From a virus, in IMG/VR virus record IMGVR_UViG_3300042888_001055: DNA of 64,000 bases, one strand, 5' to 3'. Numbering within the stretch: the first letter of the stretch is position 1; every line of letters starts with the position of its first letter. This document shows, one piece after another, positions 5,247 through 52,355 of the stretch. The notes beneath the pieces were generated by a model. It did not search any database. It saw nothing but the letters and a program-made list of their open reading frames with translations, and had not been told where the DNA came from. Position numbers and translations under genes: made by a program.

Positions 5247-5319
5247 ATGCCCAAAATTTGACATTAAATGGATTTGGCTATATAATACATACATAGACAG
5301 TAAAGAAAAGGACTAAATT

Positions 5320-5652
5320 ATGACTAAATTCATCAAGGGCAACTTCTACGGTACAGAGTATGTTGACTATACAAACCCAGTTGACGGTACTACAAAGTTT
5401 GTAGTACGTTTCAAATATGCTAAAGGTAGCAAAGCAAGTTTCCTTACATTCCTTACAAAGAACTTTACAGTTGAGGAATACTTTGCCCGTTTGGAAAGTG
5501 AATCCCCGCTAGAAATCCTACAGTCTAAGGGTTTTATTCAACCCCACATTAAAAAGATGCTCAAAGAACAGGGTTACTCAGTTACTAAATCAGGATTTGA
5601 GCAATTGGTCCAAGATAATGTTGCAAAAATGCAACAAAAATTAGCCGCATAA
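5320..5652 (+). CDS. hypothetical early protein
   Basis: own promoter module and RBS. Confidence 0.8.
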   Translation: MTKFIKGNFYGTEYVDYTNPVDGTTKFVVRFKYAKGSKASFLTFLTKNFTVEEYFARLESESPLEILQSKGFIQPHIKKMLKEQGYSVTKSGFEQLVQDNVAKMQQKLAA

Positions 5653-5715
5653 ATTTGACATTAAATGGATTTGGGCTTATAATAGAATCTTAGACAGTTA
5701 GATAAAGGACATAAA

Positions 5716-6036
5716 ATGACAGACCAAGAATTTGATGTTAAATTTGCTTATTTTGATAAAGCACGTGACGAGTTGGGTTTGAATGCCGTTTGGTCAATCT
5801 ACGAGGTTGACGCCTTGCACGAAACTCATCCTTTCAAAGGTGTCACAAAAGTTATCTATCAGGCTTATGGATCCGGTGATCATGAGGTTGCTATTGAAGG
5901 TAATACTTGGAAGTCATTGTATATTGCGGCTGATACTCTTATCAGTAACAGTGGTGACAACCATCACATTTTTATTGAGTCTTTCAAACAAAGCTCAATT
6001 GACCCTGAAATCTTATTTGTGACTACAGGCTCCTAA
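5716..6036 (+). CDS. hypothetical early protein
   Basis: own promoter module and RBS. Confidence 0.8.
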   Translation: MTDQEFDVKFAYFDKARDELGLNAVWSIYEVDALHETHPFKGVTKVIYQAYGSGDHEVAIEGNTWKSLYIAADTLISNSGDNHHIFIESFKQSSIDPEILFVTTGS

Positions 6037-6101
6037 ATTTGACAATAAATCAATTTGGGTATATAATAGAATCTTAAACAGTTAAACAATAGGAGTTAAA
6101 C

Positions 6102-16650: not shown

Positions 16651-16707
16651 CTGTAGATGCCTAACGGGTCTATAGAGAAAAAATCTTGCTTTACAAAGGA
16701 GAAAACT
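16651..16707 (+). promoter_or_regulatory. ROSE-like RNA thermometer in dnaK leader
   Basis: hairpin 1 plus TCTTGCTTT-ACA-AAGGAGA sequestering the SD with a bulged G. Confidence 0.6.
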
Positions 16708-18603
16708 ATGAGCAAAGTAATCGGTATCGATCTAGGTACCACAAATTCATGTGTAGCCGTTATTGAAAACGGAATCCCCAAAATAATTGAAAATAGTGAA
16801 GGTGCAAGAACTACACCCTCAATCGTTGCCTATGCCAATGATGAGATTCTAGTAGGTGCAAGTGCCAAACGTCAATCAGTTACAAATCCCAAAAATACTA
16901 TCTACGCTGCCAAGCGATTAATTGGACGTAAGTTCACAGAAAACGCTGTTCAAAAAGATATTGATTTAATGCCATATAAAATCGTTAAAAACGAGAATGG
17001 TGATGCATGGGTGGAAGTATTAGATAAAAAATTAGCACCTCCGCAAATTAGTGCTGAAGTACTACGCAAAATGAAAAAGACTGCGGAAGACTATTTGGGT
17101 ACAACGGTTACTCAAGCAGTTATCACAGTGCCAGCTTACTTCAATGATAGTCAACGTCAAGCTACTAAAGATGCAGGACGTATTGCAGGATTAGAAGTAT
17201 TACGTATTATTAACGAACCTACAGCGGCTGCTCTAGCATACGGTGTAGATAAACAAGATAAAACGGATCGCAAGATTGCTGTCTATGACTTGGGTGGTGG
17301 TACATTTGACGTATCTATTATTGAATTAGCAGATGTTGAGGGCGAAACTCAAATTGAAGTATTATCAACTAACGGTGATACATTCTTAGGTGGTGAAGAC
17401 TTTGACCAACGTATCATGGATTATTTGGTTGATGAGTTTAAGAAAGACAATGCGGTTGATCTTAAGAAAGATATGCTAGCACTACAGCGTTTAAAAGAAG
17501 CGGCTGAGAAGGCTAAGATTGAATTGTCAAGTTCAGCACAAACAGATGTTAACTTACCATATATTACAGCCGATGCTAATGGTCCTAAACATTTGAATGT
17601 TAAGTTAAGTCGTGCTAAATTAGAATCATTAGTTGATGAATTAATTCAACGTAGTATTCAACCATGTAAGCAAGCAATGACTGATGCAGGTGTTTCTACA
17701 TCTGATATTGACGAAGTTATTCTTGTTGGTGGTATGACACGTATGCCAAAAGTACAAGAAATTGTTGAATCATTGTTCGGTAAAGCACCTCGCAAGGATG
17801 TTAATCCAGACGAGGCAGTGGCAGCGGGTGCGGCACTTCAAGGTAGTGTGTTAGCCGGTGAACGTACAGATGTATTGTTACTTGATGTTACCCCATTAAG
17901 TTTGGGTATTGAAACATCAGGCGGTGTGTTTACTAAGTTGATTAAGAAGAATACAACTATTCCAACTAAACATTCACAAGTGTTTTCAACAGCAGATGAC
18001 AATCAACCAGCTGTAACTATTAAGGTTGCACAAGGTGAACGTGATTTGTTTACATACAATAAGATATTAGGTGAATTTAATTTAGAGGGTATTCCACCTT
18101 CAATGCGTGGTGTTCCTCAGATTGAAGTTACATTAGATATTGATGCTAATGGAATTCTTAATGTCAGTGCCAAAGACAAAGGTACAGGCAAAGAAAATAA
18201 AATCACTATCAAATCAGATTCAGGACTAACTGAAAAAGAAATTCAACAGATGGTTAATGATGCTGAAGAAAATGCTGAGGCTGATGCTAAACAAGTTAAA
18301 TTCATTCAAGCAAAAAATAGCGGTGAATCAACATTAAATAGTTTCCGTAAAGACTATGAAAAATACGGTGACAAAGTTACAGCAGAAGAAAAAGAAAAAG
18401 CATCTAATGCTATTGATGCACTAGAAGTTGCATTAGCTGGGTCTGAAGTTGAAGAAATTGACAACAAGGTCAAAGAACTATATGAAGCTATTGGTCCTAT
18501 TACTAAAGTTAAATCTGAAGAGGAACAAAAAGCTAAAGAAACATCTGAATCACAAAAATCTGACGACAATGTGGTAGATGCAGAGGTTAAGGAATCAACT
18601 TAA
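16708..18603 (+). CDS. dnaK: Hsp70 chaperone DnaK
   Basis: [31 protein letters not shown] tail; start at MSKVIG. Confidence 0.98.
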
Positions 18604-22883: not shown

Positions 22884-22946
22884 ATTTGACAATAAATCAT
22901 TTTGGGTCTATAATACAATCTTAGACAGTTAAATAAAGGACTACAA

Positions 22947-23213
22947 ATGACTAAGAAAATTTCTATCAAAGTATTCGGTGACCCTGGACACGCTTGGGCA
23001 CGTTTCCCCAAAGCACGACTGGTCAGTCTTGGTATCGCTGATAAAATCACCCCCTATAGTTATCAAAATGGTGCTAATGCTTTCCTTGAGGAAGACTGTG
23101 ACCTGTCAACACTAATGACGGCTCTTAAAGCTAAAGGGTATGAAGTTAAATTCAACGAAAGCTTTACCAATAAACAAAGCAAAATTCGTGGTTATTGCTC
23201 ATACCAAATTTGA
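22947..23213 (+). CDS. hypothetical early protein (DPGHAW/LEEDCD)
   Basis: own promoter module. Confidence 0.8.
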   Translation: MTKKISIKVFGDPGHAWARFPKARLVSLGIADKITPYSYQNGANAFLEEDCDLSTLMTALKAKGYEVKFNESFTNKQSKIRGYCSYQI

Positions 23214-23268
23214 CAATAAATGGTTTTGGGTATATAATAGAGTCTTATTCAGTCAAAAGGAGTTAGAA

Positions 23269-23556
23269 ATGAGTTTACGTTACGACACAATAGGTGAAAT
23301 GATTGCTACAAACGAGCAGGAAAAACGTCAAATCCGCATGTATGGTTGCACAGAAGACCAAATGCGTGAGGCTGTAGAACAAAGTAGTACTTTTTGCTTC
23401 TCAGGTCCTGCAATGATGGCCGCTAGTCTTATGTCTGATGCACAAGAAATGATTAATACCGAGTACGGTGACATTGACTATATGCGAGCCGAAGATGCCC
23501 GTCAAGCCCTCAATCGTGCTAAGTGGATCCTTTTTGAGTATTGCGACAAACGTTAA
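23269..23556 (+). CDS. hypothetical early protein (start moved to MSLRY)
   Basis: promoter module and AGGAG precede ATG 23269. Confidence 0.8.
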   Translation: MSLRYDTIGEMIATNEQEKRQIRMYGCTEDQMREAVEQSSTFCFSGPAMMAASLMSDAQEMINTEYGDIDYMRAEDARQALNRAKWILFEYCDKR

Positions 23557-23619
23557 AATTTGACAATAAATGGTTTTGGGTATATAATAGAATCTTAAAC
23601 AGTCAACTAAAGGACACAA

Positions 23620-23880
23620 ATGAAAGAAGTTACAGCAATCAAAGTTATCCAAAAAGATGCAGAGTTTTTGGGTATGGGTTTCTTGTCAATGATGAAATTC
23701 ATTGAAACTAACCCGTTAGCACAAACCGCAAAAACTTTGGAAGCATTCAAGGTTCTTAACCCATACTATGTTTTTCCTAAGAAAACGGTCAAAAACTTGA
23801 TGACCGGCAAGGAAATAGAGATTGATGCTGACACTCCACACTGTTGTAATCCTGCAACAGAGACTTACTGGTCAATGTAA
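23620..23880 (+). CDS. hypothetical early protein (TPHCCNPATETYWSM)
   Basis: own promoter module. Confidence 0.8.
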   Translation: MKEVTAIKVIQKDAEFLGMGFLSMMKFIETNPLAQTAKTLEAFKVLNPYYVFPKKTVKNLMTGKEIEIDADTPHCCNPATETYWSM

Positions 23881-23946
23881 AAATTTGACAATAAATGGGT
23901 ATTCTGCTATAATAGAATCTTAAACAGTAAAGAAAAGGACTAAAAA

Positions 23947-24219
23947 ATGCGTACAAAAACTATCATTGACGGATTCAAAAACTCACAAAAATTCCGTGTA
24001 ATTTTTAAAGGTGATGGAAGCGAAAACGATGTTGGTATGTATATGACTATCAAGCAAATGACGGAAATGTTTGCTACCAATACAGCCCGTACAGTTTGCT
24101 GGGATGCATTGATTAAATTGTCGTATTTGCGTTATGAAGCCAAACGTAAAAATGAGACGGTTCCTACAGGATTAGGTCATACTTTCCGCAACAAACAAGT
24201 CCAAGTTGACTTGGTGTAA
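23947..24219 (+). CDS. hypothetical early protein
   Basis: own promoter module. Confidence 0.8.
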   Translation: MRTKTIIDGFKNSQKFRVIFKGDGSENDVGMYMTIKQMTEMFATNTARTVCWDALIKLSYLRYEAKRKNETVPTGLGHTFRNKQVQVDLV

Positions 24220-24285
24220 AATTTGACAATAAATGGCATTTGTGCTATAATATATTCTTAGACAGTTAAATAAAGGAGTTTTAAA

Positions 24286-24564
24286 ATGGCTAGTCTTCAA
24301 ACAGTTTATTCACTTGGTCCTGGATTTATTTTGCAATTAAACCCGTTCAGTAATACATTGGATAAGAGGTCGAAACAATTCATGTTCAATGAAATGATGA
24401 CTGATCCAACTGCAACTTGGACTGGATCAGAAATTGTTGAAATGCGTGAACGGTCTTTACAGATGTGCGGTACTACATCCGACTCTCCCGAGATTCGTGC
24501 TACACGGGATTTTCATCAATATATGGTCCAAGAGGGTTGGATTATAGAGCGGCTTGAGGCTTGA
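24286..24564 (+). CDS. hypothetical early protein
   Basis: own promoter module. Confidence 0.8.
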   Translation: MASLQTVYSLGPGFILQLNPFSNTLDKRSKQFMFNEMMTDPTATWTGSEIVEMRERSLQMCGTTSDSPEIRATRDFHQYMVQEGWIIERLEA

Positions 24565-24623
24565 CAATAAATCACTTTGGGTATATAATAGAATCTTAGA
24601 CAGTTAAATAAAGGACTTAAAAA

Positions 24624-46747: not shown

Positions 46748-46856
46748 ATGTTTCCTTTAATTAAAAGCTAAGTTAAAAATGTACTGATATCACTCAGCAC
46801 TGTTATAATGATAACACAATAGCCATTTATTGTCAACCATTGTGTTACCCATTATT

Positions 46857-47330
46857 TTACAAGTTGTGGGTAGCACCATACAACTTTACAAACTCCTCAG
46901 GAGTTTGCGTTTTAGAATACAAGTCATAAGCCAAATTCAGAATAGTTTGCTTGGCTTTTTCAAGGTCCTGTTTAACCTTGCCTCGTTTAGCACGATATCC
47001 CTTTTCTAGTTTCTCGCCATAGTGCTTCATATTGCCACGATGGTCAGTCCATTCTAAATTAGAGACATTGTTGTTGTTTTTAACACCATCAATATGATTG
47101 ACAATGTTTTTATTTTTAGGCTTTCTCAAATATGTTTCTGCCACTAGCCGATGAATAGTAGTATTATGTATACCACCATCAACTGATGACAGTTTAACCC
47201 GTTCATATCCCTGAAAGACATTCGGCTTAAGTTTGGTAGGTGCTCCTCGCTTAGTAGAATACAGTTCTCCGGTTTCTGTGATATGATAGTCTTTAAAACC
47301 CTTGATTGGTTTCATTTTAATTTTAACCAT
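46857..47330 (-). CDS. NUMOD4-HNH endonuclease
   Basis: IKGF.DY.I...G, HRLVA..VNHIDG.K.NN...NLEW. Confidence 0.88.
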   Translation of the reverse strand: MVKIKMKPIKGFKDYHITETGELYSTKRGAPTKLKPNVFQGYERVKLSSVDGGIHNTTIHRLVAETYLRKPKNKNIVNHIDGVKNNNNVSNLEWTDHRGNMKHYGEKLEKGYRAKRGKVKQDLEKAKQTILNLAYDLYSKTQTPEEFVKLYGATHNL

Positions 47331-47333
47331 AAT

Positions 47334-47750
47334 TTATTTCTCCAAAATGTAAGATTTATTCCATTTACCAATATTAACGTCAACATAGTATGCTGTATTA
47401 AAATAGTCTGTCATTGCGTCTGATTCGTCAAACCAATCGGCCGCTTTTAATGCTACAAAAGCCTCGGTTAAGAATTCCTTAGCAACACCATCGTAGTGAT
47501 CCTGAAACCAATATTGATTTACCTGATCGTAACCATTTGTGTTGGGTTTGAAACCTCGTTGTACCTGATAAAAATCATTGCCACAGACCTTGTTGCTATT
47601 TCCAATAAAGTCAATAACACCCGATTTGAGGGTCAACGAAATGGTCATGTGATTACGGACACTCAGTGAGCCCTTAACCTTGTACTTAGCCAAGATTGGC
47701 TTGAGTGCTTGAGCAATTTTTTGTTTGCGTTCCTGATTCATGTAAGCCAT
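47334..47750 (-). CDS. hypothetical early protein
   Basis: own promoter module. Confidence 0.8.
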   Translation of the reverse strand: MAYMNQERKQKIAQALKPILAKYKVKGSLSVRNHMTISLTLKSGVIDFIGNSNKVCGNDFYQVQRGFKPNTNGYDQVNQYWFQDHYDGVAKEFLTEAFVALKAADWFDESDAMTDYFNTAYYVDVNIGKWNKSYILEK

Positions 47751-47812
47751 TTTGTTTCCTTTTCTTTACTGTTTAAGATTCTATTATAGCACCAAATCCA
47801 TTTAATGTCAAA

Positions 47813-47944
47813 TTATTGTTCCATTGGGTCACCGAGAAAATACTCAGTGACGTAGGTGACAACAATATTTTTGCCAGAATGAATCTTTAAGTACTCACCT
47901 AGTGCTTCTACATTACGAAATAAATAGCCATTTGCTTTGTACAT
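47813..47944 (-). CDS. 43-aa early protein (not in ORF track)
   Basis: full promoter module and AAGGA RBS; MYKANGYLF... Confidence 0.7.
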   Translation of the reverse strand: MYKANGYLFRNVEALGEYLKIHSGKNIVVTYVTEYFLGDPMEQ

Positions 47945-48007
47945 TTCTAGTCCTTTATTTAACTGTCTAAGTATCTATTGTAGCAGAAAGACCATTTATT
48001 GTCAAAT

Positions 48008-48169
48008 TTAGGAGTTTACTGTTTTGAACGGGCTAAACACTTCCCTATTCTTAACGGAATCGGACACGTCATAGACCCAAGTTACAGGCACATCTAGTAC
48101 AGCGGAGATGGTAGCAGGATGTGTACCTTTCTCCAACATTTCCATGATATCAATTTCTAAATCACTCAT
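48008..48169 (-). CDS. 53-aa protein, possible HTH (not in ORF track)
   Basis: coupled; MSDLEIDIMEMLEKG.HPATIS. Confidence 0.6.
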   Translation of the reverse strand: MSDLEIDIMEMLEKGTHPATISAVLDVPVTWVYDVSDSVKNREVFSPFKTVNS

Positions 48170-48339
48170 TTTGCTTTCCTAATATTAAATAAACCACCCA
48201 AAATCACTATAGCTAACCAGGACTCTAATGAGTACTTAATAGCTAAGATTGGGAACAACACATTCAATGACCAAATAGTCAATAACGGGCCAATTGCTAC
48301 GAGGGCAATGACAATCACAATTCCTACAAAATAACTCAT
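48166..48339 (-). CDS. 57-aa membrane protein (not in ORF track)
   Basis: ATGA-coupled, two TM segments. Confidence 0.6.
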   Translation of the reverse strand: MSYFVGIVIVIALVAIGPLLTIWSLNVLFPILAIKYSLESWLAIVILGGLFNIRKAK

Positions 48340-48623
48340 ACAACCTCCAACATGTTAGCGGGCACTCTCCAAACACTATTAATGAATGAACCTGGCTTTG
48401 AGGAATCAACAATAATAAACTTACGATTGATTTTCTTTACAACACCAGAGATTGTACCACGGGTTGAACTAGTAAATTTCACATTGGATCCTATTGTCAA
48501 TGCCGATTTGTTTCGTACCACTAGTTGGGCACGGGCAAAACGAATAGCATCATTAATGCTGTTCAATTCTTCATTAGTAAGATCACCCTGCATGATAGCA
48601 GTATTAATTTGCTTGATGTTCAT
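48336..48623 (-). CDS. hypothetical early protein, SH3/KOW-like
   Basis: own promoter module. Confidence 0.75.
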   Translation of the reverse strand: MNIKQINTAIMQGDLTNEELNSINDAIRFARAQLVVRNKSALTIGSNVKFTSSTRGTISGVVKKINRKFIIVDSSKPGSFINSVWRVPANMLEVV

Positions 48624-48685
48624 AAGAACTCCTTTTGACTGAATAAGACTCTATTATAGACCCAAAACCATTTATTGTCAAGTTT

Positions 48686-48925
48686 TTATTGTTTGATGTT
48701 TTTAATTGAATTTTCCATGTCTTCCAGATGCTTGCGATACTGGATACGGCCAAGATTGATGGTGTACATCACATAAGCCAACATAGCAATACAGAATGTA
48801 ATTCCAATGTAAGGTACTGCTGACACTGGAATGAGTGTAAGCAAATAGATAGTTGCGGATCCGGCGATTGCGGCGAGTGCCAATTCTTTTGCGGTCTGTG
48901 CGACTGCTTCAGTTTTTTCTGACAT
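48686..48925 (-). CDS. early membrane protein
   Basis: own promoter, two TM segments. Confidence 0.7.
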   Translation of the reverse strand: MSEKTEAVAQTAKELALAAIAGSATIYLLTLIPVSAVPYIGITFCIAMLAYVMYTINLGRIQYRKHLEDMENSIKNIKQ

Positions 48926-48982
48926 ATTGAGTTTCCTTTCTAAGTTTCAATATAAGTATTGTAACACCGAAACGATTTATTG

Positions 48983-49141
48983 TCAAATTTCGGTGCTGTT
49001 TGGATGCTTGGGTTTACGAACGTACATACCTTTTTTGGATAATACGACCTTAGGTTTGAACGGAGTGTTGCTAGAAAACAACACTTTATGAGCCCGATGT
49101 TTGGGCTGTTCAATAGTGAATGATAAGATTTTTCGTTTCAT
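48983..49141 (-). CDS. ArfA-like alternative ribosome-rescue factor (52 aa, not in ORF track)
   Basis: PFKPKVVLSKKGMYVRKPKH versus ArfA [23 protein letters not shown]. Confidence 0.6.
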   Translation of the reverse strand: MKRKILSFTIEQPKHRAHKVLFSSNTPFKPKVVLSKKGMYVRKPKHPNSTEI

Positions 49142-49174
49142 AATACGTATTATAGCATAGGAAACGTATTTATG

Positions 49175-49552
49175 TCAACTTTTGGCAGTTGTATCCTGGT
49201 TCAAGCACCCAAATACAACGACGGGGACAGTGCCAAAAGGTGGGGGTAACAGTACAGTAATAGCAAACCAAGGATTGATTCCGGCATCATTACAACGCCT
49301 AATTGTAGTTGCAATCCATAACCAACATGATAATACACTACCTACACATAATATTGCTAATGAAATAATCCATCCAAGTAGTCCTATTACTACAATAGTG
49401 AAGGGTAAACTTAGTACAAATATCATGAAAGCCAATGAACTAGTAAGACCTAGTAGGACCCAACTAATTAAATATACACCCCAATATTCGCTACGAGTAC
49501 TAGTACCTGTAAAGGCAAAGTATTTTTTATATTGTTCTAATTTGTTTATCAC
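49175..49552 (-). CDS. DUF805 membrane protein
   Basis: FTG.S.RSEYW, IRR.ND.G..W. Confidence 0.85.
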   Translation of the reverse strand: MINKLEQYKKYFAFTGTSTRSEYWGVYLISWVLLGLTSSLAFMIFVLSLPFTIVVIGLLGWIISLAILCVGSVLSCWLWIATTIRRCNDAGINPWFAITVLLPPPFGTVPVVVFGCLNQDTTAKS

Positions 49553-51681: not shown

Positions 51682-51863
51682 TACTTTACTCCAAAATGTT
51701 CTGACAACCATTGTCTTGTGTGAAAACGTGCTATCAATTGATGACCACCTGGATCTAATACATTCATACATTCCTTAACAATCAATTCGGCGAACTTTTG
51801 TTCTTGGTCGGTTGCTTGTGTACCATAGACCTGTTCGGCCAGTTCTTTAATTCGTTCATTCAT
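51681..51863 (-). CDS. KFAxLIVxEC-family small protein
   Basis: QKFAELIVKEC..HFGVK. Confidence 0.7.
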   Translation of the reverse strand: MNERIKELAEQVYGTQATDQEQKFAELIVKECMNVLDPGGHQLIARFHTRQWLSEHFGVK

Positions 51864-52201
51864 TATTTTACTCCAAATGTGTTCAATGCTGGTTGCAATG
51901 TGTTAATCAATTCTGTCTCATGTGCATGAGCAGGACGCTTACCACGAATCACTTCCAACTTACCAAATACAAAACGTTCAGCACCACGCTCACGCAAGGC
52001 ACGTGACAAACCCCAAGTTTTGTTCTCAGTCATGGCCCGTTGCATATGTTTTTGCATACGACGGCGTAATGTCAAAAACACATTGCCTTTATATGACAAT
52101 GCAGTTAAACCAATGTAGTACTCAAGTGTTACAGTATCTTGTATATAGTATATCACTTGATTGCGATCTGTTCTACGTTTACGGGCGATTTTTGAGTTCA
52201 T
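51863..52201 (-). CDS. GIY-YIG-like nuclease
   Basis: VIY..YYIG..R..H..E..LNT; leaderless behind promoter 52208-52236. Confidence 0.65.
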   Translation of the reverse strand: MNSKIARKRRTDRNQVIYYIQDTVTLEYYIGLTALSYKGNVFLTLRRRMQKHMQRAMTENKTWGLSRALRERGAERFVFGKLEVIRGKRPAHAHETELINTLQPALNTFGVK

Positions 52202-52355
52202 AGATGAATTATACATCAAAGCCCATTTATTGTCAAATATTGGTAAAAACCGCTAGAAGTGTATCAGAGTGTATACCTGAGTATTCTAGCGATTTTGAAG
52301 CCCCTGAGGGGGCTAAATGAGTACTTTTGTTTGTAAAAAATGTAATACTTAAGTA

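Follow-up and report, generated by a model that had tools for sequence, protein, structure and literature searches.

Results

A small conserved gene in a run of early phage cassettes

The window analysed here, a stretch of 64,000 nucleotides from the IMG/VR virus record IMGVR_UViG_3300042888_001055, comes from a large phage, with 16 tRNA genes at 57–64 kb, a DNA ligase and a DnaK homologue. On its minus strand, an open reading frame (ORF) of 52 codons extends over positions 48983–49141, including the TGA stop codon at 48985–48983. It is one of a series of small early cassettes on the minus strand, and its neighbours encode a DUF805 membrane protein, an HNH endonuclease, a GIY-YIG-like protein and proteins of unknown function. 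The translation of this frame is identical to the 52-aa sequence quoted in an earlier note on this DNA, where it was proposed to be an ArfA-like ribosome-rescue factor. DNA searches with the gene neighbourhood found no close relative of the window among GenBank phages, and Rfam gave nothing relevant in the 46–52 kb region of the window. The DnaK (Hsp70) homologue (window 16657–18603, plus strand) is a full-length protein of 648 aa, 64–68% identical to proteobacterial DnaK, and matches phrog_22485 with an E value of 5e-271.

An ORF of this size, devoid of a Shine-Dalgarno (SD) sequence and perhaps missing from annotation, might be a chance reading frame between two promoters. However, a word-indexed protein search retrieved 14 homologues of 51–58 aa from lake metagenomes, 67–92% identical to the window protein and labelled 'hypothetical protein'. 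The profile of these 14 sequences matched 157 clusters (50% identity) worldwide among 1.84 billion representatives; nearly all are 33–91 aa long, and three of 123–181 aa resemble fusions or miscalls. In IMG/VR, 252 stretches encode close relatives of the window protein. The same start, frame and length are kept in 54 distinct coding sequences of its clade. Among the 33 distinct coding sequences that are free of gaps, the median pairwise dN/dS is 0.157 (456 pairs), and, of 46 codons, 43 are variable at the third position as compared to 24 and 18 at the first and second. The codon-position pattern, the dN/dS value and the kept frame refute the chance reading, which retains practically no probability. 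The low dN/dS and the conservation of start, frame and length therefore establish that the 48983–49141 ORF is a real protein-coding gene under purifying selection.

A consensus promoter immediately upstream of the start codon

A sigma-70 consensus early promoter lies at 49149–49178 on the minus strand, with a -35 box TTGACA (49178–49173), an 18-nt spacer and a -10 box TATAAT (49154–49149). It matches the consensus at 12 of 12 positions and carries a TG extension in the spacer before the -10 box. As the earlier note had pointed out, only 7 nt (ACGTATT, 49142–49148, minus strand) separate TATAAT from the ATG at 49141, and this gap harbours no AGGA- or GGAG-type SD sequence. Because the -10 box ends so close to the ATG and no SD sequence is present, the transcript is predicted to start at, or 1–2 nt before, the AUG, i.e. 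to be leaderless. The layout behind the leaderless start that had been claimed for this gene is conserved in the clade, with a transcription start placed by promoter geometry: all 52 distinct upstream regions display TTGACA, 17–18 nt, TATAAT or TATACT, 6–9 nt and ATG, despite diverged spacers and flanks.

We extended the survey to 185 distinct family loci, corresponding to the window's clade and three further IMG/VR sub-families (A6, A7 and A8), and classified every distinct locus. A -35/-10 pair with the -10 box ending 6–9 nt before the ATG was found at 137 loci distributed over the four sub-families (gap of 6 nt at 16 loci, 7 nt at 48, 8 nt at one and 9 nt at 72), whereas 24 loci have an SD sequence and 24 are unclear. 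The same layout was detected for only 2 of the 210 first-ATG ORFs of at least 40 aa in the window, i.e. about 1% as compared to 74% of the family loci. In-frame 'VD...YN' N-terminal extensions had suggested that all family members are leaderless, a proposal that we rejected in view of the measured share; four distant members checked by hand have an SD sequence or overlap with the upstream gene. The leaderless trait is therefore recurrent and strongly enriched in the family, but not universal.

The window contains 21 strong sigma-70 promoters, 16 of which are followed by an ORF of at least 30 aa within 90 nt. Twelve of these 16 have leaders of 29–34 nt, mostly stereotyped and ending in an AAGGA-type SD sequence, and two have leaders of other lengths (17 and 78 nt). 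The short-gap exceptions are the ArfA-like gene (7 nt) and the GIY-YIG-like ORF starting at 52201 (6 nt). The latter, which alone among the remaining ORFs of the window has the leaderless layout, belongs to a unit at 51863–52236 (minus strand) in which a perfect TTGACA-17-TATAAT promoter (52236–52208) ends 6 nt before the ATG; it encodes 112 aa with a weak GIY-YIG match (Pfam E value of 2e-4, just under the cut-off).

The stop codon lies in the promoter of the next cassette

The stop codon of the ArfA-like gene is contained in the -35 box of the next-cassette promoter (TTGACA-17-TACAAT, 48958–48986, minus strand). An inverted repeat, CACCGAAA/TTTCGGTG, flanks this -35 box and spans the stop codon, and is kept in the nearest relatives. 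We considered a hairpin of the arfA type (RNase III site or terminator) at the stop codon and rejected it: no intrinsic terminator was scored there, and a CCnAAA/TTTGGG repeat is found around the -35 box of several other early promoters of this phage, most clearly at 6039, 22886 and 24561. The repeat is thus a feature of the promoter module rather than of the ArfA-like gene.

About 15 early cassettes of the window (5258–6100 and 22886–24600 on the plus strand, 46836–48986 on the minus strand) share one promoter-leader module, composed of TTGACAataaat, 17 nt, TATAAT and a stereotyped leader of 29–34 nt (AGAATCTTAGACAGTTAAATAAAGGAC...). CCnAAA/TTTGGG brackets the -35 box in several of them, the promoter at 48986 being, with the three positions given above, among the clearest cases. 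The promoter of the ArfA-like gene itself has neither the module leader nor the inverted repeat.

Profile searches single out ArfA

The window protein alone has no match in Pfam, PHROGs, NCBIfam or the PDB (phmmer), even at E≤10. When the window protein and two family members (P0155 and P0229) were compared by tblastn to 50,697 GenBank phage records, nothing was retrieved. P0229, a phage protein of 61 aa that bears the JGI name ArfA, shares 46% identity with the window protein along 50 collinear residues. By BLASTP against E. coli ArfA (translated from arfA of NC_000913), F28–N48 of the window protein aligned with F25–N47, with 11 identities out of 23.

We then compared family alignments by hhalign to a cellular reference alignment of 26 enterobacterial ArfA sequences. 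The alignment of the 144-member family (A3) matched ArfA with a probability of 93.9% and an E value of 1.6e-7, a significance that partly rests on the few more ArfA-like members that A3 holds, which possibly lift its score. The value was 93.6% when six ArfA sequences from cultured phages were added to the reference, and the 15 close relatives of the window protein (A1) gave 86.6% and an E value of 4.5e-6. Whereas the real alignment scores 41, the score falls to 9 on reversal of the ArfA alignment and does not exceed 16 in 30 column shuffles; the match is therefore one of residue order, and not of composition. Searching 177,635 distinct PDB sequences with the A3 profile produced six matches at E≤1, all of them ArfA chains (5MDV, 5MDW, 5U4I, 5H5U, 5MGP and 7OJ0; best E value 8e-4), and with the A1 profile ArfA was the sole match at E≤10.

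The outcome with the Pfam ArfA model (PF03889, cut-off 25.5 bits), the search that the earlier note had proposed, was divided: the window protein stays below the cut-off, without a match at E≤10, but the distant family member P0237 passes it with 27.0 bits. Six of the 144 family members match this model (best E value 3e-6), and P0001, which is 92% identical to the window protein, reaches 13.2 bits (E value 0.065). For the note, a lack of profile similarity would have counted against its proposal; such similarity exists, since both the profile-profile and the profile-PDB searches single out ArfA. The designation 'ArfA-like' thus holds for residues 22–52 by profile methods, but neither at the Pfam threshold nor for the N-terminal half. 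We conclude from these comparisons that the window protein most probably belongs to a branch of the ArfA superfamily that is divergent and mainly viral and that overlaps Pfam DUF7230.

Comparison with ArfA at the residue level

The ArfA-like segment corresponds to codons 22–52 (48986–49078, minus strand), to which the hhalign and PDB profile matches refer. The hhalign alignments begin at residues 22–27, none reaches N-terminal of residue 22, and significant similarity spans only about 30 residues of a Lys/Arg-rich segment. The motif LF..D.PF(K/R)x(K/R)V..KK..YxRKxKHxN is common to the two proteins, in this order, and spans the segment located in the A site and the mRNA-tunnel tail (residues 21–30 and 31–48 of ArfA, respectively; PMC5378476, PMC6299226). 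In the A-site part, F22, P27 and F28 of the window protein pair with L19, L24 and F25 of ArfA, and K29–V33 (K-P-K-V-V) with the R26–E30 strand (R-Q-R-V-E). ArfA L19, L24 and F25 contact RF2, and the F25–E30 strand and the hydrophobic patch contact W319, V198 and F217 of RF2 (PMC5378476). The positions equivalent to L19 and F25 are hydrophobic and nearly invariant in the family (L21/F22 and F28), and L21, P27, F28, Y40, R42 and K45 are kept in 90% or more of the 144 sequences.

The basic C-terminal segment follows the residue order of ArfA 31–48. K36–N48 align with the tunnel tail K33–N47, with K36-K37-G38, Y40, R42 and K45-H46-x-N48 facing K33-K34-G35, Y39, R41 and K44-H45-x-N47. Two residues of the KGKGS loop are missing, as the earlier note had recognized (KKG-MY in the window protein, KKGKGSY in E. 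coli ArfA); the motif is not intact, and most family members have KK-AY at this place. In ArfA, no single residue of KGKGS is essential (PMC6299226).

The protein ends 6 residues after K45-H46, in agreement with the position of the stop that had been noted relative to RKxKH, and extends four residues past the equivalent of N47, the shortest truncation at which ArfA stays active (PMC5378476). The window peptide has the length of mature, active ArfA, which is 52–55 aa (PMC6299226). The regulatory tail reported as missing is indeed absent: the gene has a real TGA codon 6 codons after K-H, without the non-stop mRNA, hydrophobic tail and tmRNA control that characterize ArfA. All 54 distinct clade sequences end 1–10 residues past K-H, and none has a hydrophobic tail. 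Cellular arfA is restrained by its non-stop mRNA and by tmRNA tagging. The window gene thus differs from arfA in being viral, in having its own stop codon and in its predicted leaderless mRNA, besides the lack of the tail and of its control.

The N-terminal half (MKRKILSFTIEQPKHRAHKVL, codons 1–21, 49079–49141, minus strand) is different. R16 and L21 are nearly invariant in the family, but no significant match to the ArfA minidomain was obtained, and no ArfA counterpart was found for MKRKILSFTIEQPKHRAH, so that ArfA's N-terminal minidomain (residues 1–18, including A18) has no recognizable equivalent. In ArfA, this minidomain, with A18, is needed for activation, and its ordering activates RF2 (PMC5378476). 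The first 20 residues, the two-residue KGKGS deletion and a score under the Pfam cut-off therefore set the window peptide apart from ArfA (YhdL; PF03889; PDB 5MDV, 5U4I, 5H5U and 5MGP).

AlphaFold2 (AF2) prediction with the family alignment gave an extended chain with a single short helix at residues 19–22 (pLDDT 82, pTM 0.25), a predicted shape compatible with a peptide that would fold only on its partner. A Foldseek search of the PDB with this model found no match, as expected for an extended chain of 52 residues. Prediction of a complex between the protein, with its family alignment, and E. coli RF2 gave 0.25, for a mark of 0.32, a value that speaks neither for nor against binding.

DUF7230 and ArfA genes of cultured phages

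DUF7230 (PF23876) is a Pfam family without assigned function, and no mention of it was found in the literature searched. Residues 28–50 match this model in 8 of the 15 close relatives and in 43 of the 144 members of the wider family (E<0.01, best 1.8e-8). The window copy itself does not match, and all matches of the close relatives lie below the cut-off of 27 bits, the best one reaching 22.4 bits. In the E. coli K-12 genome, the best site of the DUF7230 model is arfA, although weakly (E value of 0.96). A protein-atlas lookup returned unnamed clusters only, plus one with 10% DUF7230. The protein annotated as ArfA in Pseudoalteromonas phage J2-1 exceeds the thresholds of both models, with 41.3 bits for ArfA and 28.6 bits for DUF7230, and so connects the DUF7230-overlapping branch with ArfA.

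According to a review, cellular ArfA occurs only in some beta- and gammaproteobacteria (PMC8012679). GenBank annotation already includes ArfA genes of phages, in Pseudoalteromonas phage J2-1 (ATN93434), Citromicrobium phage RXM and Brevundimonas phage Bambus. Using tblastn with E. coli ArfA, we detected further copies in Pseudomonas phage pf16 (KU873925, about 131762–131902), Caulobacter phage Cr30 and Ralstonia phage RsoM2USA; in pf16 and RsoM2USA, annotation at this place is limited to a gene on the opposite strand, and the Cr30 frame is unannotated. The ArfA homologue of Salmonella phage Arash (gp99c) is labelled 'ribosomal protein L2'. In the literature, gene g10 of phage RXM is mentioned as ArfA (PMC8953757), and gp30 of pelagiphage HTVC027P is reported as a gene with an ArfA domain and with early and late expression (PMC12753301). 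Both papers mention the gene without functional tests, and no experimental test of any phage ArfA was found in the literature searched.

Six ArfA proteins of cultured phages, those of J2-1, RXM, pf16, Cr30, Arash and RsoM2USA, were compared to the window protein. All pass the Pfam ArfA cut-off; they are 40–60 aa long, with real stop codons, and mostly tail-less, RXM being excepted. They resemble the window gene in being small phage genes, and that of J2-1 also lacks the GKGS loop. In contrast to the window protein, they keep an ArfA-like N-terminus (H..G..K(D/E)(N/S)A..), and those that we inspected have an SD sequence or overlap with the upstream gene (SD-like in pf16 and J2-1), whereas the window mRNA is predicted to be leaderless.

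ArfT from Francisella and BrfA from Bacillus, two further rescue peptides that depend on release factors and are compared here by description, are likewise small, and their basic C-terminal tail is presumed to enter the empty mRNA channel. ArfT (40 aa) has a real stop codon without truncation control, and recruits release factors despite little resemblance to ArfA (PMC6299226). Its tail motif, KKGGSTNKK, differs from that of the window peptide.

Genomic context of the family in other phages

The family-bearing contigs that we inspected all look viral. On a lake-phage contig (L104), a homologue of the anti-Gabija protein Gad2 (PF26128; 2646–3218) overlaps the 3′ end of the ArfA-like gene. On another (L011), a Gad2 homologue (1747–2406) is located about 6 kb upstream, and the ArfA-like gene comes directly after genes for MazG and an HD_4 hydrolase. 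This context hints at an anti-defence or host-takeover neighbourhood.

Two ArfA-like copies, 87% and 71% identical to the window protein (L031 and L058), are present about 336 kb apart in the 524-kb record IMGVR_UViG_3300027749_002876, which could correspond to paralogy in a very large phage or to a chimeric bin. In some metagenomic proteins of the P0281 cluster (105 members; 135–181 aa), the gene call places an ArfA-like module (MRKIRTAKALFVKDSPYKPRVVRSKKAYCRKLKHK) at the N-terminus of a longer protein that carries a metallopeptidase-like HEMVH motif; a member of only 38 aa suggests a fusion or a merged gene call.

Discussion

On balance, we favour the reading of this early gene of a freshwater phage as encoding an ArfA-type ribosome-rescue peptide, basic and 52 residues long. 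By analogy with ArfA, its Lys/Arg-rich tail (about residues 34–48) would thread into the mRNA entry channel, left empty in a ribosome stopped at the 3′ end of a truncated mRNA, and the segment L21/F22...P27-F28-K-P-K-V-V would occupy the vacant A site. From there it would recruit and activate a release factor of class I, for which the ArfA model has RF2, and this factor would free the nascent peptide and leave the ribosome recyclable. Since the gene has its own stop codon and encodes no hydrophobic tail, the product would be constitutive and made directly at its active length, from a leaderless mRNA initiated at a consensus sigma-70 promoter. The suggested advantage for the phage is a supply of usable ribosomes at a time when non-stop complexes arise from host or defence nucleases and from phage-induced mRNA decay. 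We infer ribosome binding, the use of a release factor and the benefit to the phage from the resemblance to ArfA.

The resemblance could in principle have arisen by convergence, in a small basic nucleic-acid-binding or host-takeover protein directed at a non-ribosomal target. The window protein is indeed short and rich in Lys and Arg, its single sequence has no database match, and it is surrounded by small early ORFs that are unrelated and have no known function. However, F-(K/R)-x-(K/R)-V-x-x-K-K...Y-x-R-K-x-K-H occurs in the same order in ArfA, there are intermediate sequences above the thresholds of both Pfam models, the match is lost upon reversal or composition-preserving shuffling, and ArfA is the only PDB family retrieved. 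As the profile matches depend on residue order and are specific to ArfA, we consider convergence unlikely.

Another possibility, which the earlier note had raised as well and to which we give somewhat more weight although we still think it rather unlikely, is that the peptide binds the ribosome without promoting release: it would plug the empty mRNA channel and the A site with no activation of a release factor, either competing with tmRNA-SmpB or with host ArfA/ArfB and so preventing tagging, or parking vacant ribosomes. This proposal stays under consideration because the minidomain that activates RF2 is replaced by a different conserved sequence (PKHRAH, with the nearly invariant R16); only the tunnel and A-site segment is ArfA-like, and the KGKGS loop is shortened. 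Yet, in the family, conservation is among the highest at the equivalents of the hydrophobic residues that contact RF2 and of the F-R-x-R-V strand, and a general blocker would harm the translation of the phage as well. The precedent of ArfT indicates that a different N-terminus is compatible with recruitment of release factors (PMC6299226). The ArfA-type rescue peptide thus remains our preferred reading of the gene.

Leaderless mRNAs load directly onto vacant 70S ribosomes. One may therefore speculate, although we regard it as a long shot, that the leaderless start and the ArfA-type peptide together form a self-limiting and stress-proof module for the rescue or capture of ribosomes, directed against RNA-cleaving defences. 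The leaderless start would then replace the tmRNA control of cellular arfA: the peptide and its own mRNA would compete for the same vacant 70S channel, and since an ArfA-type tail binds the empty channel, an excess of peptide would shut off its own initiation. The leaderless message could also stay translatable when nucleases of the phage or of defence systems cut SD regions or the 3′ end of 16S rRNA.

The existence of phage ArfA as such was already known, from GenBank annotations and from mentions in two papers. What is new here is the size and divergence of the DUF7230-like branch, its profile link to ArfA and the quantified association with a leaderless promoter. ArfA-like proteins of this family are abundant in uncultured, largely freshwater phages, with 157 clusters and hundreds of IMG/VR loci, and clear ArfA homologues, often unannotated or mis-annotated, are present in cultured phages of alpha-, beta- and gammaproteobacteria. 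Given their short length, the peptides can be synthesized, so that a direct in vitro rescue assay in an E. coli system is feasible. The recurrent leaderless layout provides a specific and testable link between a putative ribosome-channel-binding peptide and initiation of the 70S type. If these peptides do rescue ribosomes, phages would routinely bring with them a constitutive rescue factor free of tmRNA control, which would bear on how they respond to mRNA- and tRNA-cleaving defences and to their own destruction of host mRNA.
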